IMG/VR virus record: IMGVR_UViG_3300010362_000051
Coordinates: 1 to 38,689 of that record
Reading direction: 5' to 3' (one strand)
DNA: 38,689 bases
Source of the DNA: a virus
Lineage: Duplodnaviria > Caudoviricetes
The position numbers and the translations under genes were made by a program. Position 1 is the first letter of the stretch, and every line of letters starts with the position of its first letter. Of the stretch, positions 401 to 22,730 are shown piece by piece. The notes beneath the pieces are model-generated. The model ran no database searches. It saw only the letters and a program-made list of their open reading frames with translations, and was not told the origin of the DNA.

Positions 401-877
401 ATGGACACAAATCATTCCCTCTATAATGTGCCAGAGTACGTTCGGAAATATTGCAAAGGAAGGTTGACAGAAGTAGTTGAATACCTGACTGAAAAGCAAT
501 ACTCAATTTACCTTAGAAAATATCAACATGGAGAAATCAAAAGACTAGAAGTTTTAGGTAGTGAAAAAGATAGCCAATACATCAGATGCCTAGTTACACG
601 CCAAGTTCTGCCACTTACAGTAATGAAAAATCCAATGCTCAAACGAGCAGCGGAATTAGAATATAAGACCTACAATGGGGAATTCCCCATAAGCCTACAA
701 GAAGCCAGATGGATATTGGTTGATGAATATGGGGACAAGTATCCAGATCTCAACTCCATCAATCAGCCTACTTCCTGCCTTGTATTGATTCAACACAGAA
801 GAGGACAATTTAAACTCTGTTTAAATGACACTGTTCGGATTGCCAATGAGAGGAGATCCAGACTATGTATTGTGTAG
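401..877 (+). CDS. Hypothetical protein
   Basis: 158-aa ORF, first gene after the promoter, overlaps next ORF. Confidence 0.7.
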   Translation: MDTNHSLYNVPEYVRKYCKGRLTEVVEYLTEKQYSIYLRKYQHGEIKRLEVLGSEKDSQYIRCLVTRQVLPLTVMKNPMLKRAAELEYKTYNGEFPISLQEARWILVDEYGDKYPDLNSINQPTSCLVLIQHRRGQFKLCLNDTVRIANERRSRLCIV

Positions 878-1227
878 TATGTGTTCAAAACAGAGCTAGT
901 GATTTCTTTTGCCCATTCTGTCAAGGTAATATAGGAAAGCTACTTAGAAAAACTCAAATAGAAGTTACTAAAGATTGGAAAGATATTTATCAGAGTTTAA
1001 CAATGGAGCAACAGCATAAAATTGCCTCATTGATAAGCAAGAGGATTCTTAGTGGACTCAAAGCCGGTATCTATAATGAGTCTGATTTCAGAGTAGATAC
1101 TATGGTCAAAGAATATTGTGAGATGACTCTCAAAAGACATGAATATTTAGAAATTCCCATCTCAACTGATTATAGTGATATGAACGGTTGTAGATATACT
1201 CAATACACTTCACCTAGAGGAGATTGA
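865..1227 (+). CDS. Hypothetical protein with N-terminal Zn-finger-like CxxC...CxxC
   Basis: CVVC...CPFC; AGGAG RBS upstream. Confidence 0.7.
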   Translation: MYCVVCVQNRASDFFCPFCQGNIGKLLRKTQIEVTKDWKDIYQSLTMEQQHKIASLISKRILSGLKAGIYNESDFRVDTMVKEYCEMTLKRHEYLEIPISTDYSDMNGCRYTQYTSPRGD

Positions 1228-1228
1228 T

Positions 1229-1411
1229 ATGCCAGAAGATGTAAACAGTGTTTATGGAGATACATTAGAAATAAATGCTGATGTAAATAATTCTCAGAAA
1301 CAAATCGAAGCACTAAAAAGACAAATAAAGGCGCTTAAGCAGTGTTTAAAAGAAGTAGGAATTGAAATCAACGGAGATGAAGTAAACTTAGAAGGAGAGG
1401 TAAAGGGCTGA
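1229..1411 (+). CDS. Small coiled-coil hypothetical protein
   Basis: 60 aa, GAGGAG RBS, heptad-like QKQIEALKRQIKALKQCL. Confidence 0.6.
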   Translation: MPEDVNSVYGDTLEINADVNNSQKQIEALKRQIKALKQCLKEVGIEINGDEVNLEGEVKG

Positions 1412-1521
1412 GGTCATATATGTTTTGCGTTGATAGTATATATGGAACCCAAGTGTAACTATATACTACCACAACATTTACCTTATGTCAAATTTAAACA
1501 GTGTTTAAGAAAGAGAATAAA

Positions 1522-1608
1522 GTGAAAAAGAAAGATCCTAACTTTTGGTTATTGTGGGCATTTATCTTGGCTATATTAATTAGCATAATTGCCTTTATCT
1601 CAAAATAA
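1522..1608 (+). CDS. Small membrane peptide (not in ORF track)
   Basis: GTG start, MKKKDPNFWLLWAFILAILISIIAFISK; an in-frame alternative GTG at 1501 lies inside a palindrome copy. Confidence 0.45.
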   Translation: MKKKDPNFWLLWAFILAILISIIAFISK

Positions 1609-1622
1609 TTAAAGGAGATAAT

Positions 1623-1871
1623 ATGAACTGGGAAGAGATAGACAACATAGAAAGAGTAACACCGAGACATAATTGGAAAAGAAAGGAGAACCCACCTTCT
1701 GTTGATAAGATCATTGGAGACTTTGACAAGTTAGCCTGTGATGAAAATCCAACAGAAGAAGACTTTCATCAAAATACTCAGAAAACTAAGGTCGAAGGAA
1801 AATTGGTATACATTCAAAAGGCACTTGCTCAGACATTACGATGGCAATCCTTTTGTAAAACAACTACTTGA
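1623..1871 (+). CDS. Hypothetical protein
   Basis: AAGGAG RBS before ATG; overlaps the next ORF in another frame. Confidence 0.45.
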   Translation: MNWEEIDNIERVTPRHNWKRKENPPSVDKIIGDFDKLACDENPTEEDFHQNTQKTKVEGKLVYIQKALAQTLRWQSFCKTTT

Positions 1872-2178
1872 AGACTGGCATTCTCTCTGCAAACTGGCAA
1901 GTAAGGCAGTATCAGTTAAAAGGGGGATGTCTAAGAAAACGGTATGGGAGTTGATCGAAAGGTCAACTCCTCTACACCTTGAAGGTTATAGAGATAATGA
2001 ATTCCTAATTATTAGGGTACTTTATAACAAGGTAGACAAGAAGAAGTATGTGGACATTAGGATATATGAGATCAACAATGGTATTCCTAAGAAGACAGAC
2101 AAAGGAACTTACTTCCCACTCAAGCTATGGGAGAATCTTAAACAGTGTTTAAATGAAATAACAAGGAGAATAAAATGA
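1738..2178 (+). CDS. PC4/YdbC-like ssDNA-binding protein (start uncertain)
   Basis: C-terminal KKYVDIRIY...KKTDKGTYFPLKLWENLK resembles the PC4 signature (IDIREYW...PGRKGISL...W..LK). Confidence 0.7.
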   Translation: MMKIQQKKTFIKILRKLRSKENWYTFKRHLLRHYDGNPFVKQLLEDWHSLCKLASKAVSVKRGMSKKTVWELIERSTPLHLEGYRDNEFLIIRVLYNKVDKKKYVDIRIYEINNGIPKKTDKGTYFPLKLWENLKQCLNEITRRIK

Positions 2179-2179
2179 A

Positions 2180-3739
2180 ATGAATAAGAAAACGATTAGA
2201 TGTCCAGACCATAAGGATAAACATGCTAGTGCAGCTATCTTTACTAGGCCAGATGGCAGTGAGTGGTTACACTGTCTTGGATGTGGAGCTAACAGACTCT
2301 TCAAAGAAGGAGACAAGAACTTGAGAAATGAAGTTTACATAGAGGATGAAGTGTATGATGTGGGGGATTTTGGAGTAGATATTAAACACTGTTTAAATCC
2401 TCTTGAACTTCTAGAGGATCTTGCTAGAGATAAAGGTATTACATCTGAAATGCTTGATGCACTTGGAGGATTTGTAACTGATGAATATTATCTAGGCTTT
2501 AAGTATGGAAACGGGAGGGAGGTCTATCGAAACCTAGCTAAAGACAATAGACCAAGGTTTATAAATGTAGGTGGTAACAAAGGGTTGATGAATGATGAGA
2601 TCATAGATCACTATGATGAATGGTTTCTAGTAGAAGGATTAACTGATTGGGCAATGTTCAAATACTTCATCAGACCAAACGTAACTACATCTTTTGGAGC
2701 AGAGATATCAGATGAGCAGGCTTACCTGTTAAGAGGTAAGACAGTCTTTATGTTATTTGATAGAGACTTCGCAGGATATAGGGGATCTAAGCAAGCAGAA
2801 GCTAAGCTAATGGAATATGGAGCCACTCCTATTAACTTTGAGCTACCCAATGGATTCAATCTTAAACCTAGCGGCAAGGTGGATGTAGGTTATCTCATTC
2901 ATAAAGAGCTAGAAGAGTTTAGAAACTGGATAGATTTCAAGGTTAGAAGGTATAAGACCTTTGATGATACTTATGTGGACAGGTTCAAGAAGAGAGATCC
3001 TTTGCATTTCTATAAGACTGATATACCATTCATCAGGTTTACTCAAGGTCTGTATGTATTGACTGGCCCACCTGGAGTAGGTAAGACCACAGCAGGAATC
3101 AGCTTTACAGATAACTTCCAAGAACAAGGAGGATCAGTTCTCTATGTTAACTATGATCTACCAGAGGATCAGATAGTAGCTAGGCTAGCATCTAGATATA
3201 CAGATGCATTTAGTTGGGCAGAGATAGAAGCTATGCCCCATCTCCTTAATGATGAAAGAGAAGCAGAGGAGAAGCTTAAACAGTGTTTAAAGAGAGTCAA
3301 GGTAATGACTAAGCTTACTCCATCTGAACTTAAACACTGCAAGAAGTATTACACTCATATGGTTATTGATTATCTTCAGAGGGTTCCTAATAATCATCCT
3401 GATCAGAGAGTAGGTTTAGAACATTTGATGGATGATCTATCTGATATGGGAGTAACTGATGGCATGACTGTTGTAGGTATCAGCAGAGAGAGTCTTAATG
3501 GTAACAAATTTAGTGGCACTGCTGCCATAGAATACCATGCACAGGGAGCTATGATCCTAGATAAGACAGACAATGATATAGTATCCTGTGAGATCAGGAA
3601 GAATACTAGAGGTAAGACTGGACATACTCTGTACAAGGTAGACTATCCACATCAGAAGCTAGTACCTACCAAGTTGAGTGGTATAGCAGATGATAAGTTT
3701 AGAACATTATGGGGAGAGGAAGATGAAAAAGATAATTAA
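2180..3739 (+). CDS. Fused DNA primase / DnaB-like helicase
   Basis: Zn finger CPDH...CLGC, TOPRIM VEGLTD and FDRD, Walker A GPPGVGKT, Walker B VIDYLQ, KNTRG arginine finger. Confidence 0.92.
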   Translation: MNKKTIRCPDHKDKHASAAIFTRPDGSEWLHCLGCGANRLFKEGDKNLRNEVYIEDEVYDVGDFGVDIKHCLNPLELLEDLARDKGITSEMLDALGGFVTDEYYLGFKYGNGREVYRNLAKDNRPRFINVGGNKGLMNDEIIDHYDEWFLVEGLTDWAMFKYFIRPNVTTSFGAEISDEQAYLLRGKTVFMLFDRDFAGYRGSKQAEAKLMEYGATPINFELPNGFNLKPSGKVDVGYLIHKELEEFRNWIDFKVRRYKTFDDTYVDRFKKRDPLHFYKTDIPFIRFTQGLYVLTGPPGVGKTTAGISFTDNFQEQGGSVLYVNYDLPEDQIVARLASRYTDAFSWAEIEAMPHLLNDEREAEEKLKQCLKRVKVMTKLTPSELKHCKKYYTHMVIDYLQRVPNNHPDQRVGLEHLMDDLSDMGVTDGMTVVGISRESLNGNKFSGTAAIEYHAQGAMILDKTDNDIVSCEIRKNTRGKTGHTLYKVDYPHQKLVPTKLSGIADDKFRTLWGEEDEKDN

Positions 3740-3977
3740 ACAAGTTGCAAGTGAAGTCTATATGATAGTTGATTGTGATAATTGTAACAACTATCATTTC
3801 TATGCAAAATCATTTGATAGATGGATCTATTTGAGAAGTGAACCAAAATGTATTTGGCTAAGTGATAAGCAAACGATGGAGTATGTAGACTATGAAACAG
3901 GAAACTCTCCCACTGAAGTTTCAAGCGCAACTGGAGATACCGGAGAACTTTCATCATCTGAAGGAACTGACCTTTGA
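3723..3977 (+). CDS. Hypothetical protein
   Basis: GAGGA RBS, CxxC; 3' end overlaps the polymerase start. Confidence 0.45.
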   Translation: MKKIIKQVASEVYMIVDCDNCNNYHFYAKSFDRWIYLRSEPKCIWLSDKQTMEYVDYETGNSPTEVSSATGDTGELSSSEGTDL

Positions 3978-5796
3978 AGATGTAGAAGGTGAAGCAGTAG
4001 GCTTCGATATAGAAACTAATGATAGCATAGATCCTTATGATCCTATGTCAGAAGTAGTATGTCTATCTATTAGTGGCTATACACAGGTTTTCTATCTTCA
4101 CAAGGCAAAGTTTAAACAGTGTTTAAATCTGATTAAGCAAGTAGTAGAGTCTCCAAATTGTATGGTCATAGGTCATAACATAATGTTTGATTTAAAGTTT
4201 ATGGCTGTCAAATATGGATGGACTATAAGGTGTCTGGCTTATGACATAATGCTAGCAGAGTATTTCTTGGATGAAGAAAGGAAGTTTACCAAGCTAAAAG
4301 ATCTGATCATCAAATATGGTATTGATACTGGAGATCATAAGAGTATATATGAAGGAAGGAAGATCTCTCAAATACCATATGAAGATTTAACGGTCTACAA
4401 TGGAAATGATGCCAGAGCTTGTGTAATACTCAAAAGGGATGTGTTTGATCCAGCTTTAGAGGAACAAGGATTAACTAAGATAATGGGTATAGCCTGTGAA
4501 GCAATACCTGTACTGACTAAGATGATGGTTAGAGGAATAAATGTAGATCTTATGTATGGACAGCAACAGCAAATGAAATTATATGATAAAATGATAAAGA
4601 TGAGACTTAAGTTGAAAGATCTAGCTCAATCTACATTCAATCCTGATAGTCCACAACAGTTATCTAAAGTTTTATATGGGAAGTTTAAGTTTGAAGCTTT
4701 TAAAATTGGTAAGGCTCATGGCAGTACAGATTATGAAAGCATAATTAGAATTAGGCAAGAACAATGTGATGGAGATGATATAGATGTCAAGTTCATTGAT
4801 ACTTTGATAGAGTACAATAAGCTTAAGACAATGAATAATAAGTACTATACTAAGCTTCCCTATTGGGTCAGACCAGATGGTTGTATCCATACAAATTTTA
4901 ACTTGGGAGCTACTGATACTGGTAGATTAACTAGCAGTGGTACTAGAGATGAAGATGGAAATACGCTTGGCCCTAATATGCAGCAGCAAAAGAGGGGGGC
5001 TGAGTTCAGAGGAGTATATGTTCCACGTCCAGGCTATACATTTTTAGAGGGAGACTGGTCAGCAGTAGAGATGAGATTCCTTGCTCATTTTGCAGGGGAA
5101 ACAGCGATGATTGAGATGTTTAAACAGTGTTTAGATGTGCATACAGCTACTATGTGTCAACTGAAAGGATGGAACTATGATGAAGCTCTGGAGATATATC
5201 TTAATGCAGATCATCCCGAACATTTATCAATCAAGAATCTTAGAGTTGGAGTTAAGAACTTCAACTTTGGAGAAGTCTATGGAGCAGGCATTGACAAATT
5301 ACAAAATGAACTCGTTAAGCATGGAATCTACTGGACAAGAAAGCAGTGTGAAGATATTTATTATGAAAAGAAGAAGCTCTTTCCTAATATCGTCAGATGG
5401 AAAAAGGAAGTTGCAAACTTTATCAAGAAGTATCAGTACGTTAGGATGCCTTTCGGTCAACTCCGAAGGCTACCTGACGACTCATGGGGCAGTATCCTCA
5501 AGGGTATTAACTTCATCATACAGTCTACCGCATCAGGATGGTTCCCCATAATAGGAATGATCCTACTAGACAGATACTTTGATGAGAACAAACTTGATGC
5601 TCACATCTTACTCAGCGTTCACGATTCTATCCTATGCGAAGTTAAGATCTATGGAGAGAGTAAGATGGAAAAGATAAAGAAAGACTTTGAAAGGATAATG
5701 ACTGAAGATATTTTAGAATATGTAAAAGCTATCTTTGACTTTCAATTAACTGTGCCTTTAGAATTTAAAACAGAATATATGGAAAGGTGGAGATAA
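3892..5796 (+). CDS. polA: Family A DNA polymerase with 3'-5' exonuclease
   Basis: Exo motifs FDIET, GHNIMFDL, YNGND; TDTGRLTSS; motif A DWSAVEMR; motif B RVGVKNFNFGEVYG; motif C VHDSI. Confidence 0.96.
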   Translation: MKQETLPLKFQAQLEIPENFHHLKELTFEDVEGEAVGFDIETNDSIDPYDPMSEVVCLSISGYTQVFYLHKAKFKQCLNLIKQVVESPNCMVIGHNIMFDLKFMAVKYGWTIRCLAYDIMLAEYFLDEERKFTKLKDLIIKYGIDTGDHKSIYEGRKISQIPYEDLTVYNGNDARACVILKRDVFDPALEEQGLTKIMGIACEAIPVLTKMMVRGINVDLMYGQQQQMKLYDKMIKMRLKLKDLAQSTFNPDSPQQLSKVLYGKFKFEAFKIGKAHGSTDYESIIRIRQEQCDGDDIDVKFIDTLIEYNKLKTMNNKYYTKLPYWVRPDGCIHTNFNLGATDTGRLTSSGTRDEDGNTLGPNMQQQKRGAEFRGVYVPRPGYTFLEGDWSAVEMRFLAHFAGETAMIEMFKQCLDVHTATMCQLKGWNYDEALEIYLNADHPEHLSIKNLRVGVKNFNFGEVYGAGIDKLQNELVKHGIYWTRKQCEDIYYEKKKLFPNIVRWKKEVANFIKKYQYVRMPFGQLRRLPDDSWGSILKGINFIIQSTASGWFPIIGMILLDRYFDENKLDAHILLSVHDSILCEVKIYGESKMEKIKKDFERIMTEDILEYVKAIFDFQLTVPLEFKTEYMERWR

Positions 5797-6134
5797 TGTT
5801 AGAACATACCCTTCATGAATGTAAAAAAGATGATTGCTTCATATGTTCAGGAGGTCTAAGTTCATGTGAAGTTTGTGGTGGTGGTGAAGGATCTTTAAGT
5901 ATGCACTGCTATGGAGCAAAACTAGAAAGTTATGTATTAGAAGCCATATATAATAAGTGGATAGACTATATTGGGGGTTATTTTTGGTACTATTCCAAAG
6001 AAGACCACAAAATATTTCATGCTGACAGATCTCCAATTACTCTTGAAGGTTTAGAAAATCTTTATGGATACCAAGCGAGCAAGGAACAAAGTAAAGAAAG
6101 GCAAACAGGCAGGAGACAGGGCAGGAAAGCCTAA
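5796..6134 (+). CDS. Cys-rich hypothetical protein
   Basis: TAATG coupling with polymerase; CFIC..CEVCGGGEGSL..HC. Confidence 0.65.
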   Translation: MLEHTLHECKKDDCFICSGGLSSCEVCGGGEGSLSMHCYGAKLESYVLEAIYNKWIDYIGGYFWYYSKEDHKIFHADRSPITLEGLENLYGYQASKEQSKERQTGRRQGRKA

Positions 6135-6405
6135 ATATTCTCAGAAGCATAGGTATTATCCTGAATGGATGCCTGATGACAAGGGATTCACAAGATACTA
6201 TTGGCATCTCAAAAGACGATGCTTATGGACACTAGGGCTTGTAACTATAAAGGGGAAAAGAAATGATAGACACTTGACATTTACTCCAGACAAGATAGCA
6301 ATGCTACATGAAATGATAGACAGATGTGATGAGCATTTGAATAAGGCGAAAAAAGAATTCTATGAAAGCATTAAGGATAATGCTTTTGAAGATGATGAAA
6401 CGTAA
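6064..6405 (+). CDS. Basic hypothetical protein
   Basis: 113-aa ORF; stop TAA is the first triplet of a palindrome copy. Confidence 0.65.
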   Translation: MDTKRARNKVKKGKQAGDRAGKPKYSQKHRYYPEWMPDDKGFTRYYWHLKRRCLWTLGLVTIKGKRNDRHLTFTPDKIAMLHEMIDRCDEHLNKAKKEFYESIKDNAFEDDET

Positions 6406-6449
6406 ACAGTGTTTAAGAACTTTAGTTCGATGAAATAGGAGAAAACAAA

Positions 6450-7709
6450 ATGGCTAAGATGAGTTTTGATGAAATGATGGAATGGTCAAAGAAAGTTAAA
6501 GAATATGATAGTCCTTTTAACTTTCTTAAATTCCCCCAAGGTATTCATCTTGTAAGGATTGTAGCTGCTGAAGATGATGCTTATTTCAGGAGCTATACTC
6601 AGCATGATTGTGGTCATGAAAAAGATTACAGGTCTTGGTTGTGTTGGGATTACATCATGGACAATAAAGAAGTGAGAGAGTATCTAGCAGAGAAAGAACT
6701 TCTTACAGAAGCAGATGCTAAACTAGCTGCTAAATATGGAGATCCTGTTTGTACTACTCTTGAAGTTATCAAGAAGTATGTCAAGGATATAGAGCCTGTC
6801 TACAAGGCTATGAGAACTAAGATTAGGGTAGTAATGAATGTGTTTTATGTTGCTCAAATCTACCCAGAGAAACCAAGTGAAAAAACTCCTAAGCCTGGGC
6901 TATATGTGCTGGAGCAATCAGCATTTTTCAATAAGCAAATCATCTCTGCGATGGAGAAAGACTCTTCATTTGAGGGAGAAGATCCCTTAGCTCTACTTAG
7001 TTCTGAATCTGGAAAAGTAATGTCTATTCAAGTTGAGGGTGAGGGAATTGGAAAGAACAGAAGGCAATACACTATAGATTTTAAAGGTAAACCAAGTCCA
7101 GTTGTTTTCTGTGAAGATGGAGCTAATCCATATCTTGCATCTAATAAGAACAAGAGACAGGGATTGCCAGAAGATTTTGAGATTTATAATTTGAGAGATG
7201 TAGAAGCTGTCAGGTTTACTGCTTATCAGGAAACGATCAATCAGCTTAAGGCTGTTAAGACAATCAAATCTATAATGGATCAGATTGGATATGAGGTAGG
7301 AGGAGATCAACCAAGTGATAATCCTCTTGATGATAATTATGATGATAAGTTTGCTAAGAAGACTGTTGGTAAACCTATCGCAGTTAAAGAAATCAAGGAA
7401 GATTCTTGGACTAAGCAAGTAAATGGGAAGAAGGAAAAAAAGGAAGCTTGGGAAGATGAAGAAAACATAAAAGAAGAAAGAGCAAAGGTTCAGTCTAAGA
7501 AGGTTGTAGAAGTTGAAGAGGATGACGATGAAATCCCTTTTGATGATGACTTTGATCTTGAAGAATCAAACTTAGTTACGCCAGCAGAGAACACTAAGTT
7601 TGCTAAAACCTCCAGAGAAAAGGATACCTTTGAAAAAGCTGTACCCAAATCAGATCCAGCAAAAGAAGTGATCACTAACGCTCCTAAAACTAAAAGGAAA
7701 ATCTTCTAA
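6450..7709 (+). CDS. Putative single-stranded DNA-binding protein (gp32-like) with long charged C-terminus
   Basis: FLKF..G.HLVRIV, His/Cys cluster, GEG...RQYTI, acidic EEDDDEIPFDDDF; position in replication module. Confidence 0.65.
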   Translation: MAKMSFDEMMEWSKKVKEYDSPFNFLKFPQGIHLVRIVAAEDDAYFRSYTQHDCGHEKDYRSWLCWDYIMDNKEVREYLAEKELLTEADAKLAAKYGDPVCTTLEVIKKYVKDIEPVYKAMRTKIRVVMNVFYVAQIYPEKPSEKTPKPGLYVLEQSAFFNKQIISAMEKDSSFEGEDPLALLSSESGKVMSIQVEGEGIGKNRRQYTIDFKGKPSPVVFCEDGANPYLASNKNKRQGLPEDFEIYNLRDVEAVRFTAYQETINQLKAVKTIKSIMDQIGYEVGGDQPSDNPLDDNYDDKFAKKTVGKPIAVKEIKEDSWTKQVNGKKEKKEAWEDEENIKEERAKVQSKKVVEVEEDDDEIPFDDDFDLEESNLVTPAENTKFAKTSREKDTFEKAVPKSDPAKEVITNAPKTKRKIF

Positions 7710-7762
7710 AGATGGACTAAAGTCCTTTAAACAGTGTTTAAACCAAAAGGAAATGATTGAGG

Positions 7763-7823
7763 TAATCCGTAGTAGGATGATCGAAAGATATATAAAGAAT
7801 AAAGGTTGTCCTACTACGGATTA
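7763..7823 (+). other. Long RNA stem-loop
   Basis: TAATCCGTAGTAGGA (7763-7777) / TCCTACTACGGATTA (7809-7823), a perfect 15-bp inverted repeat extended inward by G-U pairs on the + strand. Confidence 0.85.
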
Positions 7824-7844
7824 TGTAATGAAAGGAAAATGGTT

Positions 7845-8213
7845 ATGACGTGCTTAGAATTACATAACAAATATGGTATGACATTGCAGATAGACCTCAA
7901 TGGAGAGGCATTTAATAGTCCGAGAATAATTGTACGGAGTAGCAGTGAGCCTACTTCAAACCATCAATTCATGCTATCTGAACTTGATATAGAACAATTA
8001 AAAGCTTTCTTTTTTATCAAAACAAATGTTGGAGTTGATGGGGAAGATCTCAAATCTATGCTCCAAGCTGTTAGGTTTTGTATGTCTGATATCCATAATA
8101 AGATACAAGCAAATGAAAGAGCATATGAAAGACTGAATGAAATCTATGGAAAGTATATTATCAAGGAGGAAGGTAATGAAGATAGAATTGAATCCAATAG
8201 ATCCTCTGAGTAG
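7845..8213 (+). CDS. Hypothetical protein (start uncertain)
   Basis: ORF 7806..8213; ATG at 7839/7845 downstream of AAGGA. Confidence 0.6.
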   Translation: MTCLELHNKYGMTLQIDLNGEAFNSPRIIVRSSSEPTSNHQFMLSELDIEQLKAFFFIKTNVGVDGEDLKSMLQAVRFCMSDIHNKIQANERAYERLNEIYGKYIIKEEGNEDRIESNRSSE

Positions 8214-9114
8214 GTTGATTTATGATAAGCATAAGATAGGAGCTAATGTGAGATCTTCTGTACCTCCTTGCACTTTATGCAGAGAAGTTCCTGAGGGGGC
8301 TGTCAGGGGACACTTTCATGGGTCTGAGTTAGGTCAATGCAAACTCAAAACTTATTGGGATTGTACTTCTGGATCAACATTTGAAGATCCTCTAGAAGGT
8401 AGAGTTAGCGAAGATGATATAGACGCTAGAGCAGCTTTCCTACTTGATGGACATCTCCATGAAGAGAACATCATCAAGAACATAGCTGCTTCTGGAATGA
8501 ATATCATGGGATATGGTAATCAAGATGAGTATGAAAGAAAGATTCAAGTCTATGTCAGGTATACTAAAAATGGGGAAAAGAGTTCAATTGATTTTACTAT
8601 GCCCCATAATAAAGCTCCCAATAGGGATAAGGTATTAGAGGGATTTGAAGAATCATTCAAGATAATTGCTCATCTTGATGGAATACTTGAAGTCAAGAGT
8701 AAAAAGACTGGTAAAGAGATGTTAGCTGGAGTTGAGTGTAAGGCTGTTAAAGATTACACTTGGAAGAAAATAAAAGAAACATCTGAAATTTCTGATATTT
8801 GGTATGGACAAATCCATAGTTATTTCATATCAAACCATCACATACAGAGGTTCTATTTATTTATCAAGCATAGGCATACATCTCAGATGATGAAACCTAT
8901 ATTGATAATGAGGAATGATGATTATATCAAGAGGAGACTAACAGCTTTACATGATGTGTATAGTGCAATTCTAGATGATGATCCAGATAAATATGGAATA
9001 AAGGCAGAGCATACATCTCCCAAAGATAGTGAATGTAAATTCTGTCCCTACAAAGAAAGATGTTATGGAAAAGTGAAGGTAGATTTAAACACTGTTTACG
9101 AGGAGGAAGAATAA
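8176..9114 (+). CDS. Cas4-like PD-(D/E)XK exonuclease
   Basis: SELGQC, HLDGIL...VECK, YGQIHSY, C-terminal CKFCPYKERC (1+3 Cys Fe-S pattern); AAGGAGG RBS. Confidence 0.85.
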   Translation: MKIELNPIDPLSRLIYDKHKIGANVRSSVPPCTLCREVPEGAVRGHFHGSELGQCKLKTYWDCTSGSTFEDPLEGRVSEDDIDARAAFLLDGHLHEENIIKNIAASGMNIMGYGNQDEYERKIQVYVRYTKNGEKSSIDFTMPHNKAPNRDKVLEGFEESFKIIAHLDGILEVKSKKTGKEMLAGVECKAVKDYTWKKIKETSEISDIWYGQIHSYFISNHHIQRFYLFIKHRHTSQMMKPILIMRNDDYIKRRLTALHDVYSAILDDDPDKYGIKAEHTSPKDSECKFCPYKERCYGKVKVDLNTVYEEEE

Positions 9115-9578
9115 TGAATGAACTAGAAATCGTACAATGTGCTAGATGTGGTAAGATCAGAGAGAAATTTCTAGTAGGATGCCCCGCTTGTGGAGTTATT
9201 GAAACTGTTGATCCAAATCAGCCTCCATCTGCTAAAGATATTGACCTTAATGTTATTAAAGCTGGAGCAGAATTTCATAAAACTAATCTTGAAGATGAAC
9301 AGATAGCACAACTTAGAGAATGGATTCCTAAAGGCCAGAACTGGCAATTTTATGCTGGAATGATACTAGCTGCAAGACTCATTATCTATTGGATAAAATA
9401 TCTTGTTCCAGTAGATCAACTTTCATTACCTATGAGCATTCAAAACTCAAGGGTATATTATTTGATGTCTTTTATGACTAAAGAAAAGCAACAGAACTTT
9501 TGTGATCTGTTGAATACATTTAATCCAAACAAGGAGAAAAAGAAAGATGAAGAGAATAGACAAGGTATGCAATCATAG
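9114..9578 (+). CDS. Hypothetical protein with N-terminal Zn ribbon
   Basis: CARCG...CPACG; TAATG coupling; GAGGAGG RBS. Confidence 0.7.
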   Translation: MNELEIVQCARCGKIREKFLVGCPACGVIETVDPNQPPSAKDIDLNVIKAGAEFHKTNLEDEQIAQLREWIPKGQNWQFYAGMILAARLIIYWIKYLVPVDQLSLPMSIQNSRVYYLMSFMTKEKQQNFCDLLNTFNPNKEKKKDEENRQGMQS

Positions 9579-9672
9579 TGATTACTGTGATAGATTTGTT
9601 ACTATCAATGGGAAGAAGTACAAAGTAATGAGATGCAAGAAATGTGGAAGGGAGTATAAAGTACCAGCATGA
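9547..9672 (+). CDS. Small Zn-binding protein (not in ORF track)
   Basis: MKRIDKVCNH...MRCKKCGREYKVPA, 41 aa; ATGA overlap with next gene. Confidence 0.6.
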   Translation: MKRIDKVCNHSDYCDRFVTINGKKYKVMRCKKCGREYKVPA

Positions 9673-10034
9673 AACAAACTGAAATAAAAGAAACATATAA
9701 GGATAGACTAGAGGGACTTCTTAAAAGAGAAGATTCAGAAGTCCTCCTCAAAGAATATAAATTCATGTATAGTAGAGGATGGAAATTTGATTATGCCTTT
9801 CCACAACTAAAGATTGCTATTGAATATGATGGAATAGTATATAAACCAAGTCAACAGAGAGGAGGCCATCAAACCCCAAAGGGAATTATCAATGATCAGG
9901 AGAAAAGGAATGAAGCTCAAGTAAGGGGGTGGATAGTTCTGTTAGCCAATCAGACATCAATAGACAATAGAACATTCATTGATCAACTTGAAAGGGCTAT
10001 TAAAGTTAGAAGAGGAGATATTAGATATGAATGA
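9669..10034 (+). CDS. DUF559/Vsr-like endonuclease
   Basis: EYKF..SRGWKFDYA...KIAIEYDG...H...D.EKRNEAQ..GWIVL. Confidence 0.8.
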   Translation: MKQTEIKETYKDRLEGLLKREDSEVLLKEYKFMYSRGWKFDYAFPQLKIAIEYDGIVYKPSQQRGGHQTPKGIINDQEKRNEAQVRGWIVLLANQTSIDNRTFIDQLERAIKVRRGDIRYE

Positions 10035-10239
10035 AAGACTAGAAAGAATATTGAAAATGTCAGAAGATTTTAGTGAAGATCAACTACTTGGAACATTAGA
10101 CGTTTCTTTAATGGATGGATCTAGGTATGAACTTGCTTTTGAGGTAATGATGTCGTTGTTGATGAACAAGATCAAACAAATTGATAAGCAAATAGAAATT
10201 CTTAAACAGTGTTTAAATGAATTAAAAGGAGAAATATAA
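10027..10239 (+). CDS. Hypothetical protein
   Basis: AAGGAG RBS; TAATG coupling to next gene. Confidence 0.65.
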   Translation: MNERLERILKMSEDFSEDQLLGTLDVSLMDGSRYELAFEVMMSLLMNKIKQIDKQIEILKQCLNELKGEI

Positions 10240-10628
10240 TGAAAGATCCTTGGACAGATTTTTTAACGTTTGATCATTTTCAAAAGGTCAATGAACGTAG
10301 ATGTGAAGAAGGCTTCCGTCATAGGGTAGCTAAGTGGTCTATAAATGATTGGGCTGCTGCTACTGGAGGAGAAATTGGAGAAGCTATTCAAGAACTTGGA
10401 AAGCTTCTTACATTCCTTGATACTGCTAAGAAGATCAAAAGACTTGAAGATGAACCCTTTGATGGGGAGAAACTAGAGAAATTTTTAGATCAGCTTGCAG
10501 AAGAAATCTCTGACATCATTACATATTGTGATTTGACCATGACTAGAATAGGTAGAAAGACAGCAGAAGAAATAGTCAAGAAATTCAATAAAGTATCTGA
10601 CAAAAGAGGATGTAGTATAAAGTTGTAA
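10239..10628 (+). CDS. MazG-like nucleotide pyrophosphohydrolase
   Basis: GEIGEA...LAEEISDIITY...IVKKFN, all-alpha NTP-PPase acidic motifs. Confidence 0.8.
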   Translation: MKDPWTDFLTFDHFQKVNERRCEEGFRHRVAKWSINDWAAATGGEIGEAIQELGKLLTFLDTAKKIKRLEDEPFDGEKLEKFLDQLAEEISDIITYCDLTMTRIGRKTAEEIVKKFNKVSDKRGCSIKL

Positions 10629-10642
10629 ACAGTGTTTAAATC

Positions 10643-10679
10643 TAGAGAGACTAGAGGATCTTAGTCTCTAGTCTCTCTA
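10643..10679. terminator. Hairpin at the junction of the two converging transcription arms
   Basis: TAGAGAGACTAGAG / CTCTAGTCTCTCTA, 14-bp stem, 9-nt loop; no classic U-tract. Confidence 0.6.
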
Positions 10680-10878
10680 TCCTCCTATTCATAGCAAGTA
10701 ATGCTTCCCTATTAGCTGCCATTTCTGCCAAGACTGCTCCTTTTTCCTCTGCCATTTTTAACTCTATCTTGGCAAAGTTATCCCTAGAGTTCCACCCTAC
10801 TTTCAGTATAGTAGAAACAATAGTTATTATTCCCACTATGACTGAAACCATCAACAACGCAAATTGACCTTGGGACAT
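10651..10878 (-). CDS. Small membrane protein, holin-like
   Basis: One N-terminal TM helix plus coiled-coil tail; last gene of the late arm. Confidence 0.45.
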   Translation of the reverse strand: MSQGQFALLMVSVIVGIITIVSTILKVGWNSRDNFAKIELKMAEEKGAVLAEMAANREALLAMNRRIERLETKIL

Positions 10879-10883
10879 GGTTA

Positions 10884-13800
10884 CTATTTACTCTCCTGAT
10901 CTAGACGTTCTTTATCTGCCAATTGTTTTTGACCAAGTATACCAAGTCCTCTGACTTGATACTGATTTTTAAGTTTGTTACCGGCTTTAATTACTTCTAG
11001 AAAGTTTCTGTATTCTTCCAAGTATTTCTCATAATCTGTATTAGCTCCTCTGATCTTGGCATTCCTTAGCTCATCTACAATGTCTTTTAGGTGAGAGACA
11101 TTTGCTAGATCCTGCCACTGCTTTTGCTCCTTTAGATCCATCCCTCTAGGAACAACTCCAACTACAAACTGCATAGCTTTATCTAAACTAGACTGAGATG
11201 AGTCACCAATATTTAACCACTGTTTAAGAGCAGGAACAGCCTGCATAACAGAATAACCAAGATACGTATTAACATATGTGGCTGTCTTACCTGTACTCAG
11301 ATTAACTCTGTCCTCCCACCCTATAGCATCTTTCACAAATTTAGGTAGGAAACTATAATCTCCAATCCTTTGACCTTCTGATACAGTTCTACCTGTAAAG
11401 AAGTTCTTATCTATAGCAGTCTCTAAAGGAACTTTGATAAATGGAGTTAAAGCAGCTAGTAGACTCTTCTCTACTGTCCTCTTAGGATCAAAATCTCCAG
11501 TCTTATTGTCATAGACCATAAGAGATATAGCATCTAGAGGAGTCATATTATTTAGGATATTGAATTTTGCTTTGCCTTCTTTATCAAATCCAGTATAGAT
11601 AAAGGGCTGCTCTATCAAATAACTGTCCCCAAGTATAGCTCTCTCAGAAGGAGAAAGATTGTCACCCTCTCCAGTCAATAGTCTCTCCATCAATCCAGTT
11701 AGTTTATTAGCTGCTGCTACAGTTCCAGGCTCGTTCATTGCTTTCTTCAAAGCAAACGGAATAGCAAATCTTGGAAAAGTATAGAAGGGTATTACTTCTC
11801 TTACTCTACGTTCAAAGTGAGTAAGACCTCTCTTGTAGTCAAATAGGATCTCATTGACTTTATTAGCTGCCTGCTTGGGAGAATAACCTTGAGTAACAAA
11901 ATTGATATATGAAACCATTCTCCCATAATCTTCTACTATGGCAGGATGCTTCCAATATTGAATTAACTCTTTAGTAACAGACCATCTATTATTTGGATCA
12001 TATTGTAATTGCTCCTCTATCTTTTTCTTGAATGTAGATCCTGTAGCGTCAGTCCCCCTGATAACATTATTCTCCCTAGCTGTTCTGATAAGATCTTCCC
12101 CGGTATAAGTCTGACCAAAGGCAGTTACTCTTTTGAACTCTGACGCTACATCAAGTAATCTCTCCTCTCCTAAAATATTCTCTAGAGCTACCCTACTAGC
12201 TAGGACTGCATCAGATCCCTCTCCACCAAAGTTCTTACTGATCATATTTGAAATGTACTTTGGTAGAGTTGGGGTCTTCTTACCCCTATAGAAATCCATC
12301 AGCAATAGACTAGCATCTGCCAAGGCTCTAGGATCAAATGTCTTTCCACCTTTAAGGCCAAGTTCTAACATAATCTGTATTGTATTTGATATTCCCTGCT
12401 TGAATCCAAATGAAGGTTTAGCTACTGTAGCTCCTTTTCTGAACATACCAGTTAAGGTACTCATAAACTTCAAAGCTGCCCTAGTTGAAGTATTCATGCC
12501 AGTAGGATATACAGATTCTCCAAGCAGCTTAATATCATCAAGATACTTCTTACCATTGGGAAGTGATGTTAGCTTGACTAAATCATTTTGACTTCTAATC
12601 AGCAAATCCTTTCCAGTAGTAGACTTATACAAATCTCCAAAGGCTTCTTCCAGATCTTCAAAGAACTGCTTCTTAACTAAAGCTCTACGAGAAGATGTTA
12701 CTCTAGTAGCGTATATCAAAGCCGCATCTAATTCCGGTATGTGTCCAGCCAATTCGGCTTCTTGCATAGTAACATACTTACGTTTTTGTGAAGATGACAG
12801 CTCAGTAGATAAGCCATATTTCTGCTTAGTTATAGCTACCATATCATTAGCATCATCAAGACTATCATAATAACGTGGGAAGTAATTCTTGATTTCTGTT
12901 TTCAGTAGATTGGAATCCATTTCCAAGGCTGCTATATTTGCAAACTCTTGTTTCAATCCTGCTATAACAGACATCTCTTCAGCACTTAAATTGGTGTTAG
13001 AGATAGCATCTTGGAAGATTTTATCTGCTTCAGATTGTAAGACTGTCCTGTCTTCTACAAACTCAATTCTCCTTGTATTATCGTCAATCTCCCTCATCAC
13101 CTTAGTTATTCTATCTCTTCTATCTTGAGTCATTCTCTCAAACAACCTTCTGGATTCTCTGATAACTTGACCTTCAATATAATCATAGTGGTTTTCAAAT
13201 TCTGTTATAACTCCCTTGAATGGTTCTTCTTTTGGTCTAACAAATAATCCAGCCAATCCCTCTTTAAATCCCTTAGCAGCTACTCCAGTTACTTCAAACA
13301 TCCTAGCTATGGGGGATGCAATTGGAATATTCTTTACAACTACTGTGTGGTTGAAAGCTTTGATAAAGTCTAATGACTTCTTCAATGGGCCTAGTCCTGT
13401 AAGTGTAGCTATCTCTTTTGAGATCTTTGTAAATGGAACTTCAAGTTTAAGTTTTAAGCTTGGTTCTTTAAACAGTGTTGATGCAACTTTAGAATCAAGA
13501 TTAGCAAGAGATTGCATAACCTGTTCAGCTTTATACTGTATCTCATCAACAGAAAGCTTACGTACAAATACTCTAGTGAAATCAGTAGGCATCTCACTAA
13601 GGCCAAGTTCAGTTTGTGCAAGTTCTGTAGCGGGGGTTTTTCCAAACTTACCTCCTACTCCTCTCTTCTGAATATTAGCTATGCCAAGATCTGCCATCTG
13701 ATCGGCATAGAACTTCTTCAGTATATCAATTTCTTTTTTGACTCTGCCTGGGGTAGCTTCTTGAACTACTCCTTTAACTTCTTTTCTAGCTAATTCAGCA

Positions 13801-14672
13801 TTGATTCCTGCTATATCAAATTCCCTATTAACTATTGGTTCAAGCTTCTTTCTTTCTTCTAGTAATATTTCTTTAGCTACTTTTTTATTTTTTCCAGTTA
13901 GATTCTGTAAGTCTATGGGAGCTTGTGCCTGTCTTAGATTAGTAGGCATTATTTGATCTAAGTCAACTACTATTCCTTGATCTCCCAATTTCTTTTGAAC
14001 ATTCTTTAATGACTTAAATTCCTTTTCATTCAAAGCTTCCAAAGCTTCAGTAATCCTATGGTAATTTATCTGGGCCTGCTTCTGGACTAGAACCTCTCTT
14101 GTTAATCCTCCCACGCCTTTTCTAGCTAGATCCTTTGTAACTCCCTCTCCTACGGCAGTCATAAAGAATTGTCTACCTTCCATAGTTCTGATAAGCTTCT
14201 GTAGTACATCCTCTCCAGCTTGTGTAACTAGCTTAGATCCTACCTTAACTCCCTTACCAGCTAAACCTACTCCCAAGTAAGTTGTAGGATCTAACGCAAC
14301 ATCTCCAAGGAATCCTAAGACAGCAGTAGCTTTAGGATTCTGCTTGGCAAACTCTGGCGCTCTTTCTCTAATCACATCAGCATATGAAAGTTTCCTAACA
14401 GGATCAATAAACTCATTGAATGAATCTGAAATAGCATCAAAGATGGACTTTGAATTATCCATCATACTATTAAAGAACATGGCTGAGGCATACTGTGGTC
14501 TTGAGAGAATGTCTAAAGCTGGCGCTATGACAGAAACCACAGATCCAGCAAATCCTTTTCTTGGAGTAGCTTCTGCTGGAACAATACTATTATTGAACAA
14601 TGCACTTTTACTGTTAGAGTCATTAAGCAAAGTATTAGTTAGACTGTCATTATCATCAAATAGGATTCCCAT
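10884..14672 (-). CDS. Large internal virion / DNA ejection protein (putative)
   Basis: 1262 aa, helical, last of three genes after tail genes as in podoviruses; PFYTFPR motif typical of such proteins. Confidence 0.65.
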   Translation of the reverse strand: MGILFDDNDSLTNTLLNDSNSKSALFNNSIVPAEATPRKGFAGSVVSVIAPALDILSRPQYASAMFFNSMMDNSKSIFDAISDSFNEFIDPVRKLSYADVIRERAPEFAKQNPKATAVLGFLGDVALDPTTYLGVGLAGKGVKVGSKLVTQAGEDVLQKLIRTMEGRQFFMTAVGEGVTKDLARKGVGGLTREVLVQKQAQINYHRITEALEALNEKEFKSLKNVQKKLGDQGIVVDLDQIMPTNLRQAQAPIDLQNLTGKNKKVAKEILLEERKKLEPIVNREFDIAGINAELARKEVKGVVQEATPGRVKKEIDILKKFYADQMADLGIANIQKRGVGGKFGKTPATELAQTELGLSEMPTDFTRVFVRKLSVDEIQYKAEQVMQSLANLDSKVASTLFKEPSLKLKLEVPFTKISKEIATLTGLGPLKKSLDFIKAFNHTVVVKNIPIASPIARMFEVTGVAAKGFKEGLAGLFVRPKEEPFKGVITEFENHYDYIEGQVIRESRRLFERMTQDRRDRITKVMREIDDNTRRIEFVEDRTVLQSEADKIFQDAISNTNLSAEEMSVIAGLKQEFANIAALEMDSNLLKTEIKNYFPRYYDSLDDANDMVAITKQKYGLSTELSSSQKRKYVTMQEAELAGHIPELDAALIYATRVTSSRRALVKKQFFEDLEEAFGDLYKSTTGKDLLIRSQNDLVKLTSLPNGKKYLDDIKLLGESVYPTGMNTSTRAALKFMSTLTGMFRKGATVAKPSFGFKQGISNTIQIMLELGLKGGKTFDPRALADASLLLMDFYRGKKTPTLPKYISNMISKNFGGEGSDAVLASRVALENILGEERLLDVASEFKRVTAFGQTYTGEDLIRTARENNVIRGTDATGSTFKKKIEEQLQYDPNNRWSVTKELIQYWKHPAIVEDYGRMVSYINFVTQGYSPKQAANKVNEILFDYKRGLTHFERRVREVIPFYTFPRFAIPFALKKAMNEPGTVAAANKLTGLMERLLTGEGDNLSPSERAILGDSYLIEQPFIYTGFDKEGKAKFNILNNMTPLDAISLMVYDNKTGDFDPKRTVEKSLLAALTPFIKVPLETAIDKNFFTGRTVSEGQRIGDYSFLPKFVKDAIGWEDRVNLSTGKTATYVNTYLGYSVMQAVPALKQWLNIGDSSQSSLDKAMQFVVGVVPRGMDLKEQKQWQDLANVSHLKDIVDELRNAKIRGANTDYEKYLEEYRNFLEVIKAGNKLKNQYQVRGLGILGQKQLADKERLDQESK

Positions 14673-14698
14673 ATTGATCTCCTTAAACAGTGTTTAAA

Positions 14699-16303
14699 TT
14701 ACTTCTTTGCTACTGGCTTTAGTTCAGGATGTTGACTATAGGCATAGTCTAATCGCTCTTTGAGATCTTGAATATCATGCTCAAGTTCTGGTATATTATT
14801 TTTAAAAGCCTTATTAGTTTTAGCTCTTTCTAAAGCTTTCTGTTTATTCTGAAGCCTTTCAATTAACCCATTAACTACATTAGCTGCTCCAACTTTCTGC
14901 AATCTATTCTTTATTTCAGCTTCTATTTCTGCTGCTGTAGCTTCCTTAACTCCTGGCTGAGCTTGTATATCTGAAACTGCTGTAGCTTCTGAAGTTCCTT
15001 TCTCAGCTAAAGCTGGAGTTAATGGAATTTCTGTACTTTGAGGATTTACTTTATTCCTACCTAAAGCCTCTTGAACTTGTTGTGGTGTTACTCCAAGCTT
15101 CTGTTGAATAGCGGGATCACTAAGTCTCTGCATTATTTCAGCATCAGATCTCCTCTCATTTCTAGCTTGTGTAATTGCTTCATCAAGCCTAACTCCCAAA
15201 GCCTTCTCATCTGGTAGATCTGTTTGACCAAATAGGCCAGACATATTAGCCAAGCCTGGAGTAGTCTTAGCATAGTAATCAAAGAAGTATTTGAATGTCT
15301 CTTGTTGATTTAGATACTTAACTACTTTAGAATTAGGATCTACTGGATTATATTGACCAAGCATATCCTTTTGTAGTTCAACTACTTTCCCATTTTGATC
15401 TATTCCAAGTACATTTGTAGTAGCTTTATTTTGTGCCCACTCTATTCCTTTAGCTATGGGGGATTCTGTTCCTCTGTTGTGAGCCATAGCCACATTGAGA
15501 TCATGTCTATACTTCTCATCCCTTAGGGCTTTAGCTGCTTTAGAAATCATAGCATCTTCATTTGAAGAGAGTTTCTGACCTTTAGAGATCTTATCATATA
15601 GGTTAGATGCTTCCTTACCTGTAAAGAATCCACTATAAATCAATGGGAGGACAAAACCTAATTCGTTACCTATCTTTTGTTCTGTTATATTATTTGAACT
15701 TCTAAGATTTTCTAGTTCTTTCTGATTAGCAAATTGAGTTTTATTATTCTCAATGTCGTAACCTTGTTTTATGTCAAGAAGTCTCTTGTTCTGATCGAAA
15801 GACAGATTGGCCATTTTCTCTTGTTGGAAAGCTTCTCTGTTGAACCTTTGAACATCTCTAACATTGGCTCTAAATTCAGCACCAAATTGTCTCGCTTCTC
15901 CTCTAGCTTCTGCTCTGATCTGAGTAGCTTCCGCTCTCCTTTCTTTACCCCTAGCTAGGATATCTTCAATTTGAAGCTGTGCTCCAAGCTGCTTAGTTCT
16001 TTCTCTTCTCTCTTTCTCTATATCCTGCCTCTGCTGCTGTCTAGATAGAGTCTCTTGTAACGCTTGACCTGGATTTGGAGACAAAGCTACAGCTATAGCT
16101 TGAGGAATCAAAGACAATAAGCTCTGAGCAATGCCAGGCCCTTGCTCTGGAGCATTCAATCCTTGTAAAATTTGCTGAACTTGAGCCATATCATCTTCTG
16201 GACTAGGCCCATTTATATCTGACAAAACTCCTCTTGAAGGTTGAGGAGTTTGAGATGCTGCATTTAATAGAATTGATGGTAATGCAAATGGATCAAATGC
16301 CAT
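14699..16303 (-). CDS. Putative internal virion / ejection protein
   Basis: 534 aa, Gln/Ala/Glu-rich coiled coil; synteny. Confidence 0.55.
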   Translation of the reverse strand: MAFDPFALPSILLNAASQTPQPSRGVLSDINGPSPEDDMAQVQQILQGLNAPEQGPGIAQSLLSLIPQAIAVALSPNPGQALQETLSRQQQRQDIEKERRERTKQLGAQLQIEDILARGKERRAEATQIRAEARGEARQFGAEFRANVRDVQRFNREAFQQEKMANLSFDQNKRLLDIKQGYDIENNKTQFANQKELENLRSSNNITEQKIGNELGFVLPLIYSGFFTGKEASNLYDKISKGQKLSSNEDAMISKAAKALRDEKYRHDLNVAMAHNRGTESPIAKGIEWAQNKATTNVLGIDQNGKVVELQKDMLGQYNPVDPNSKVVKYLNQQETFKYFFDYYAKTTPGLANMSGLFGQTDLPDEKALGVRLDEAITQARNERRSDAEIMQRLSDPAIQQKLGVTPQQVQEALGRNKVNPQSTEIPLTPALAEKGTSEATAVSDIQAQPGVKEATAAEIEAEIKNRLQKVGAANVVNGLIERLQNKQKALERAKTNKAFKNNIPELEHDIQDLKERLDYAYSQHPELKPVAKK

Positions 16304-16361
16304 AATTCCTCCTCTTAAACACTATTCGTTTCACTCATCTAGTTTACTTCGTAAACACTGT

Positions 16362-16583
16362 TTACGCTGGAGCAGCTACTTCAAACCCATCTAAAACTAC
16401 TTCATAATTCATAGTTTTAAAAGTCTGAAATACCCACTTTTCTCCCTCTCCAGTTGGACAAGAAGTTTGAATTTGAATGTAGTCTCCAGAAGGTATTCTT
16501 AATCCTGTGAAGATGATTACTATATCATATGTGGGAGCTTTATAAACTACAATCTTAATTATTGGTATTGGTATGTTCATCAT
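16362..16583 (-). CDS. Hypothetical protein
   Basis: 73 aa; fills the gap; stop supplied by palindrome. Confidence 0.55.
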   Translation of the reverse strand: MMNIPIPIIKIVVYKAPTYDIVIIFTGLRIPSGDYIQIQTSCPTGEGEKWVFQTFKTMNYEVVLDGFEVAAPA

Positions 16584-16587
16584 ATAT

Positions 16588-17538: not shown

Positions 17539-17562
17539 AATTCTCCCCTATTTAAACAGTGT

Positions 17563-18920: not shown

Positions 18921-18941
18921 AAAACCTCATGTAAACACTGT

Positions 18942-19136
18942 TTAATAATTTCCCATTATCTTATGAACTTTGGACATCTGAGAACTAAAAGATTTAGATT
19001 TACCTTTTCCCTTATGCTTGAAATATTCTATCTGCTGCAATCTCTTTTTAGCTTTCTTCTTGGAAGTAGGTTTAGACAAACGTTTGTCAGACTTTTCAGA
19101 AACTACTTCATACTTACTTCCCACCTTTTTAATCAT
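18942..19136 (-). CDS. Small highly basic protein
   Basis: MIKKVGSKYEVVSEK...AKKRLQQIEYFKH; AGGAG RBS. Confidence 0.7.
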   Translation of the reverse strand: MIKKVGSKYEVVSEKSDKRLSKPTSKKKAKKRLQQIEYFKHKGKGKSKSFSSQMSKVHKIMGNY

Positions 19137-19144
19137 ATTAGCTC

Positions 19145-19903: not shown

Positions 19904-19923
19904 ATATACCTCGTAAACACTGT

Positions 19924-21654: not shown

Positions 21655-21668
21655 AATTTAAACACTGT

Positions 21669-22004: not shown

Positions 22005-22012
22005 AATTTCTC

Positions 22013-22714: not shown

Positions 22715-22730
22715 ATTTCATAAACACTGT

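Follow-up and report, generated by a model that had tools for sequence, protein, structure and literature searches.

A dispersed palindrome overwriting phage genes in register is a candidate loading site for a ParB-family clamp

The window analysed here, a 38,689-nt phage contig (IMG/VR record IMGVR_UViG_3300010362_000051, CheckV completeness 87%), carries 41 exact copies of a 13-mer palindrome, TAAACA-S-TGTTTA (S is G or C, the two forms being mutually reverse complement), between 127 and 36444. Set against known systems of dispersed sites, what is new in this phage family is direct alignment evidence for the overwriting of protein-coding DNA in register, for the filling of gaps by sites within genes and for turnover of the motif at fixed positions. 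On balance we favour a model where the palindrome is an evenly spaced, genome-wide site maintained by selection and not by conversion, and where its likely role is the loading of a ParB-family clamp similar to KorB or Noc. The window phage is predicted to encode this ParB in a part of its genome beyond the contig ends.

The abundance of the palindrome is far from that expected of the underlying sequence. Under a third-order Markov model fitted to the window without its motif copies, 0 exact, 0.1 one-mismatch and 1.3 two-mismatch copies are predicted, against 41, six and one observed, and a 15-mer, TTAAACASTGTTTAA, occurs 23 times versus 0 in 100 shuffles. Exact copies are separated by a mean gap of 908 nt, equivalent to about one per kb, and the bases adjoining the core favour A or C (AA, CG, AG). 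In 16 of the 41 copies the palindrome forms the TAA stop of the upstream open reading frame (ORF), 13 further copies lie in ORFs and 12 are intergenic or precede a start. As an earlier sequence-only reading of the window had proposed, the conserved entity is the DNA signal and not the peptide, and it stands in register at both of its sites in the family A DNA polymerase (PolA), in a PC4-like protein and at residue 366 of the primase-helicase.

Sites in genes and at gene junctions

Relatives were recovered by scans with PolA, capsid and terminase alignments; nine contigs were fetched whole and seven long relatives compared. The 14 in-gene coordinates given by the sequence-only reading are all exact copies lying in frame within ORFs, with the peptides it named. 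One of the three motif frames opens with a stop, and the two open frames yield K[QH]CL and N[ST]V[Y]. Codon choice at these peptides follows the DNA motif. Across the coding-strand ORFs, 11 of 12 in-frame K[QH]CL peptides are written AAA CAG|CAC TGT TTA, where window codon usage would give the motif codon set with a chance of about 0.03 (KQCL) or 0.015 (KHCL) per peptide. The twelfth has AAG and is the one-mismatch copy at 1336.

PolA (3892..5796, + strand) holds two sites and was aligned with 19 homologues at 46–76% identity, giving 20 rows in which nine KQCL-clade rows form one clade with support 100/100. Site statements for the homologues P0002–P0020 rest on peptides, the DNA of the other KQCL-clade members not being among the loci. 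At 5121..5133 (+), residues 410–414 read FKQCL by gap-free substitution: none of the 20 rows is gapped at residue 411, and the column of the Cys holds Gly in all 11 outgroup rows, so the register with Cys where Gly is usual had been recognised correctly from the window alone. Within the clade this position reads KQCL in six of nine rows and KHCL in one, while in the remaining two the motif has been lost without a return to Gly. The KHCL row may reflect a flip of the centre base, if its DNA follows the motif. At 4113..4125 (+), residues 74–78 again read FKQCL. Here KQCL is present at residue 75 in all nine clade rows, the only nearby indels lie upstream, in P0018 and P0019, and protein-only rows read FKPGL, FKLGL and FKQGL.

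Two sites in other genes are equally free of gaps. LKQCL in the C-terminal helix of the PC4-like protein (2139..2151, +) aligns gap-free with G001, with FKVTL of G003 in the same column, and LKQCL at primase-helicase residue 366 (3277..3289, +) faces LKYVL of G001 without a gap, G005 having its own site in the same column. The proposal that the motif enters proteins by substitution and not by insertion therefore stands cleanly at four of the 14 sites. It is less clean at the six that lie in length-variable linkers, loops, an insert and C-terminal tails, and the remaining four are without a usable homologue.

The first of the six length-variable sites, IKHCL in a variable primase-helicase linker (2383..2395, +), is surrounded by indels, in a linker where G001 likewise carries a site of its own motif. 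LNTVY in the C-terminal extension of the Cas4-like exonuclease (9086..9098, +) most likely began as a junction site over which the reading frame was extended, since the G001 site stands just behind the exonuclease stop. LNSVY occupies a variable portal loop (29677..29689, −) in which G002 and G004/G005 have their own sites, and FKHCL a terminase insert (32193..32205, −) that is absent from G003–G006 and reads FNRVK in G002; at this site substitution and insertion both fit. The last two are LNSVY in the C-terminal tail of an 85-aa protein (35524..35536, −), a tail longer than in G002, and LNTVY in the variable acidic tail of a 186-aa family-core protein (35999..36011, −), which was aligned with its relatives and by its position may be the small terminase. 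Among the four sites without a usable homologue, VNSVY lies at the N-terminus of a 60-aa ORF (1242..1254, +) whose homologue is too distant here, and no homologue was found for the 70-aa ORF with LKQCL (10203..10215, +) or for the 73-aa ORF with FKQCL ahead of the terminase (33070..33082, −). The fourth (31115..31127, −) supplies the TAA stop of the terminase and also encodes IKQCL in a second ORF, of 165 aa, that overlaps the terminase and whose start is uncertain.

At no aligned site is there a clear motif-sized insertion, with PolA 411, PC4 and primase 366 free of gaps and the terminase ambiguous, which upholds the view that the palindrome is not a mobile insertion. A transposon footprint with TA...TA ends was considered and ruled out, as there is no length gain. 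Over 41 in-gene sites in nine protein families the sites fall in poorly conserved columns (conservation 0.24 versus 0.36 for background, with none of 5000 draws as low), so the cost to the protein is mostly small, PolA 411 being the exception.

The sequence-only reading had also entertained a directed process, in which site-to-site gene conversion or a molecular drive similar to DNA uptake sequences (DUS) or HIP1 writes the motif without benefit to the phage. We consider this very unlikely. In its favour, near-matches are few (six one-mismatch against 41 exact copies), the PolA 411 site differs from the relatives' codons by five base changes and one site pair (16352 and 35524) has 11 flanking bases in common. 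In the portions of the literature at hand, DUS are likewise described at poorly conserved residues (PMC2817400) and as arising by recombination (PMC2397512). However, that pair is the only one sharing flanks of at least 10 nt (0.07 expected, p=0.07) and its 11 nt are the longest shared flank, while shorter flank sharing fits an extended A/T preference together with ribosome-binding sites. A drive would not predict even spacing, DUS are non-palindromic and host-wide, and no motif-iterating genome was found among 185,579 species genomes scanned for paired copies. Conversion could nevertheless help to homogenise cores that are under selection. Joined to a motif arm, the 16352/35524 flanks read GTTTAC-GAA-GTAAAC, which makes a short hairpin whose loop is GAA, and they may represent one local copying event.

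At gene junctions, the sites at which TAA is the stop of the upstream ORF (6403..34915) begin at 6403, 10626, 16352, 17553, 18932, 19914, 21659, 22721, 23591, 24268, 25764, 26998 (a doubtful ORF), 28514, 30409, 31115 and 34903. Intergenic and pre-start sites are found at 127, 334, 1495, 7728, 14684, 27701, 33269, 33391, 33554, 33974, 36432 and 34304. The last of these reads FKQCL and is a 15th in-ORF copy, missing from the sequence-only reading, although a G005 homologue suggests that the true start lies downstream. One-mismatch copies stand at 811, 1336, 11214, 13469, 37181 and 37745 (811..37757), and the longest gap between exact copies (10626–14684, 4,058 nt) contains two of them.

Genes on the + strand include those for the PC4-like protein, primase-helicase, PolA and Cas4-like exonuclease, and on the − strand those for terminase, portal, capsid, adaptor and large virion proteins. 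Positions 36445–38689 plus 1–126 comprise about 2.4 kb without an exact site, the one-mismatch copies at 37181 and 37745 lying within it. This stretch also contains non-coding DNA with short GGTCTGACCA-like repeats (also at 62–112) and may be a terminal or origin region. A near-consensus sigma-70 promoter, TTGACA-17-TACAAT with TG, stands at 257–285 (+), flanked by the sites at 127 and 334 and preceding the rightward genes; over positions 1–12000 a scan for sigma-70 promoters and terminators stayed at chance (53 versus 46 and 4 versus 5, respectively). Two ORFs among the head genes (27716–28270 and 26573–27004, −) have signal-peptide-like starts, and the 184-aa one has homologues in most relatives. 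By eye they resemble outer-membrane or periplasmic proteins, which would hint at a diderm host.

Palindromes of the relatives and spacing of sites

The sequence-only reading had suggested homologues from motif-free phages as controls, but the relatives carry other palindromes at the same places. G001 and G002 have TTAACC-S-GGTTAA in 19 and 14 copies (in G001 TTAACCSGGTTAA, 19 times). G008 has the densest lattice, TAAAGT-W-ACTTTA, with 67 exact copies of TAAAGTWACTTTA in 47.8 kb, G009 carries TTAAAT-W-ATTTAA (TTAAATWATTTAA, 38 copies) and G003, G004 and G005 carry looser forms of the G008 and G009 motifs. These motifs all fit T(T/A)AA-N5-TT(A/T)A at one to two per kb. Their placement is the same as in the window, at junctions, at stops and in genes (LTGL, FNPVK, KVTL, LNNL), and a strong lattice with its own 13-bp palindrome is present in five of the seven long relatives. 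In G008, 27 of 29 in-gene copies give KVTL in one frame.

No lattice was seen in the fetched parts of more distant loci, 72 of them from the capsid scan and 63 from the terminase scan, and a 17-mer scan of viral contigs returned 94 stretches, with no stored locus holding more than two 13-mers. Scans with the single PolA protein found no relative in viral contigs, only the window's own record in metagenomes and nothing in genome contigs. The cultured phage collection holds no close relative (PolA best about 27%, capsid best about 32%, one weak match to the family ParB described below).

Different motifs coincide within three alignment columns seven times against 0.9 expected under a uniform null with one genome per motif class. 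Under a null drawn from the least conserved 30% of columns the expectation for these coincidences is 2.1 (p=0.007; p=0.03 at five columns). PolA residue 75 is the clearest case of reuse, where FKQCL of the window, LTGLK of G001 and, more weakly, KENL of G003 share a column at the DNA level, and where the own-motif site of G009 lies about four columns to the right of residues 74–78. Most simply, an old site would stay where it is and only its core would change; that a few tolerant spots have been recruited time and again is a possible alternative.

That the palindrome works as a hairpin, in RNA or in a single strand, to signal processing or pausing, or is an artefact of assembly, is scarcely credible. 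Any palindrome can fold, and many copies do lie at gene ends. However, RNA folding of four sites yields energies of −1.3 to −5.0 kcal/mol with z of +0.39 to −1.29, and variant sites such as TTAACACGGTTAA, present four times in G001, break the symmetry. A Logan contig from run X1, possibly of the same sample, matches 19000–38314 of the window with one base different, and eight other PolA proteins (P0002–P0009, 69–76% identical) share the same peptide at residue 75. The motif thus recurs in an independent assembly and in proteins of other samples, and is not an assembly artefact. In G001 (L001), four asymmetric TTAAC-ACG-GTTAA stand at 360, 706, 4254 and 5571; this variant is restricted to the early region, the exact palindrome being found elsewhere.

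The spacing of the sites was assessed by a gap test in which junction sites are fixed and in-gene sites are scattered over coding DNA, with automatic gene calls for the relatives. By the coefficient of variation (CV), gaps are more even than this null in G001 and G003 (p=0.003 each), in G009 (p=0.006) and in G004, G005 and G008 (p<0.001). Within the window, the neighbour distance of in-gene sites is 590 nt versus 327 nt expected (p=0.012). Such even coverage points to the whole DNA needing a site within reach, and not to control of single promoters.

An orphan ParB as candidate reader

In G001, a protein of 362 aa combines ParB_N with a GRQR patch and a helix-turn-helix (HTH), and its predicted model (pLDDT 70) matches ParB, Noc, Spo0J and KorB structures. 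Orthologues occur in all seven long relatives (G001, G003, G005–G009) and form the only cluster that is found in all seven yet is missing from the window. A predicted CTP-binding arginine patch of GR[QRK]R type is present in the seven relatives' ParBs, G007 reading GKRR. A profile built for this family found three genomes outside its training set and no match in 28 outgroup phages, 16 of which are at least 90% complete. In G001, G003 and G008 the ParB gene sits in an early region that the window does not cover. The uncovered stretch, 38689 to 1, corresponds to the relatives' ParB region, and an open-ended ORF (37859..38689, +) runs into the broken contig end. Another Logan contig of run X1 (743 nt) extends 620 nt past the right end of the window. 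For both the ParB P0119 and the PolA P0012, which lies outside the KQCL clade and closer to the window than G001, the longest contig is 15,908.

As to a ParA partner, AAA_31 scored over cut-off in none of eight genomes, with three weak matches in primase-helicase frames; given no cognate ParA, this is not a ParABS system. G003 has a P-loop ATPase gene (34848–35999) that was unseen in the Walker-A scan of the other relatives and has no AAA_31 match.

An unlikely alternative is that another phage-encoded dimeric regulator uses the sites as operators or stoperators, blocking transcription gene by gene in the manner of Cluster A mycobacteriophages. The 16 sites that overlap stop codons and the many that stand just ahead of the next ribosome-binding site are consistent with this, as are the 20–30 sites with lineage-specific motifs in syntenic places that the available part of PMC6550527 describes for Cluster A. 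On the coding strand the centre base is G in 29 of the 41 copies, the sole bias among sites otherwise palindromic, and this too speaks for the alternative. However, stoperators are asymmetric and oriented whereas the sites here are palindromic, and in-gene sites fill gaps instead of clustering at promoters. In the eight genomes there is no tyrosine integrase (serine integrases lay outside the search), and ParB apart they share no HTH_3 repressor, four of the five HTH_3 matches lying inside ParB itself. A zinc-ribbon core protein is not found in G008, the holder of the densest lattice.

Binding by a host protein, be it a nucleoid, TetR-like or LysR-like factor or a decoyed defence protein, with the motif changing as the host changes, appears unlikely. 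It would be in keeping with a motif that is conserved more than ParB in the pairs G003/G008 and G005/G009. In addition, a Bacteroidota metagenome-assembled genome (L212, 276–485) has two exact 13-mers, operator-like, between an efflux operon and the end of a regulator-like ORF. However, 185,579 species genomes scanned for two copies 180–210 nt apart yielded two loci with just two copies each, although the host may be outside this set.

The reading as a ParB loading site has to be weighed against several observations that speak against it. The window, at 87% completeness, holds no ParB gene, and among 20 ParB-family proteins looked up none could be tied to a KQCL-clade contig. Of all the genomes tested for gap filling, the window gives the weakest result (CV p=0.12). 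G006 and G007 have a ParB but no excess of T(T/A)AA-N5-TT(A/T)A (20 versus 17 and 27 versus 21 expected); G006 instead carries a degenerate AACT-W-AGTT (128 versus 46, one mismatch allowed) and G007 only weak candidates. In some ParBs of the family the arginine patch is altered (GAQR, GVQR, GSRR), the G003 and G008 ParBs have no Pfam match of their own, and the contrast between ParB and the outgroup is that of one family with others and hence a single evolutionary event. Finally, the ParBs of G003 and G008, which share a motif, are 20% identical (PolA 39%) and those of G005 and G009, with the same or nearly the same motif, are 30% identical, with unlike recognition helices in both pairs, so that covariation of protein and site is not shown. 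In KorB, site recognition relies on residues beyond the HTH, and this would lessen the weight of the dissimilar helices. G006 also has its own 69-aa HTH gene (27923–28132).

A mechanism for a ParB clamp acting on such a lattice may be drawn from the published biochemistry of ParB, Noc and KorB (PMC11790492, PMC7383237). A ParB dimer that has recognised both half-sites would close on CTP and then slide over a short distance. In a small and heavily transcribed genome sliding may be short, and sites every 1–2 kb would then be required to coat the whole genome. Such a coat would most likely serve to organise the DNA after injection and during replication, to position it or to shield it, and might in addition damp transcription at gene junctions. 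Selection for coverage would place sites first at junctions, where the TAA arm can also terminate an ORF. In the gap left by a long gene, a site may become fixed through point mutations at a tolerant, half-matching codon run. At PolA 411, G005 and G008 already match eight of 13 motif bases. As specificity drifts, existing sites would likely be re-written in place.

A broader proposal is more tentative. An integrase-free podovirus family may coat its genome with its own partner-less ParB clamp via a self-written lattice every kilobase, where the need for coverage fixed a Gly-to-Cys change in the polymerase core and a drifting specificity re-writes dozens of sites in place. Phage chromosomes could then possess a general level of organisation not described before, which would also explain the repeats of Cluster O mycobacteriophages. 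If true, small lytic or carrier-state phages would have a nucleoid-like layer built from densely placed loading sites and an orphan ParB clamp, and a function would be found for phage repeats that lack an explanation, those of Cluster O among them. Four strong motif types with DNA, three of them with a ParB of the same genome, provide matched sets for following how specificity and site change together under coding constraint. The motif peptides (KQCL, LTGL, FNPVK, KVTL, LNNL) can reveal a phage's site from protein alone, and can also mislead analyses of selection at the protein level.

Comparison with known systems

Outside subscription papers and supplements, literature searches returned only the Cluster O paper (PMC4351075) as close to dispersed palindromes combined with an orphan phage ParB. 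Its available text describes a 17-bp repeat, TGTTCGG-NNN-CCGAACA, in Cluster O mycobacteriophages (Corndog), with about 34 invariant palindromes per genome (PMC4351075). As in the window family, about one third of these lie in genes, they are absent from the host, the phages have no integrase or ParA and the function is given there as unknown (PMC4351075). The ParB-like gp90 is one of three candidate binders in that text and not the one favoured by its authors (PMC4351075). In our analysis gp90 scores over the cut-off for Pfam ParB_N and matches the family ParB profile with E=3e-19. Cluster O differs in being composed of unrelated siphoviruses, in its 3-nt spacer and in sites that are denser at one end; one motif serves all five phages, so that no turnover is described in the text at hand (PMC4351075). 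In Vibrio phage SIO-2, the first 50 of 81 kb contain no repeated exact palindrome, a weak TTAA-N8 excess (18 versus 5) and no match to the ParB profile.

Two systems share the dispersal of sites but differ in symmetry. Cluster A stoperators are also 13 bp long, lie mostly off promoters and diverge between lineages at syntenic sites, whereas, according to the accessible part of the source, they are asymmetric, transcription-oriented and bound by the immunity repressor of a temperate phage (PMC6550527). The DUS of Neisseria and Pasteurellaceae resemble the lattice in that a motif in coding DNA raises specific peptides and prefers poorly conserved residues (PMC2817400, in part). They are, however, non-palindromic, spread over the host chromosome, tied to natural competence and gained by recombination, as far as the consulted portion of PMC2397512 describes.

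The closest parallels lie with the ParB family. Noc on its binding sites (NBS) and ParB on parS also place a ParB-family protein on scattered palindromes, and a few residues switch specificity between them; in the portion of the paper at hand the parS and NBS palindromes have an even length of 16 bp, and they are spread far more thinly, over chromosomes (PMC7383237). The recognition-helix residues of the window family differ from those of both Noc and ParB. KorB is likewise a ParB-family CTP clamp with dispersed sites and sliding at distance, and its 13-bp consensus OB palindrome, TTTAGC-G-GCTAAA, likewise has arms rich in T/A around an odd centre (available parts of PMC11790492 and PMC5577506). 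Unlike the window family, the IncP plasmid RK2 has a ParA partner, IncC, and a clamp-locking KorA, as set out in the same part of PMC11790492. The window family also departs from KorB/OB in its density of about one site per kb and in its half-site sequence. The OB operators of RK2 reportedly number 12. Taken with these likenesses and differences, the palindrome lattice of the window family probably works like KorB/OB or Noc/NBS, as a putative member of that class, and would be neither a ParABS system nor a stoperator set.

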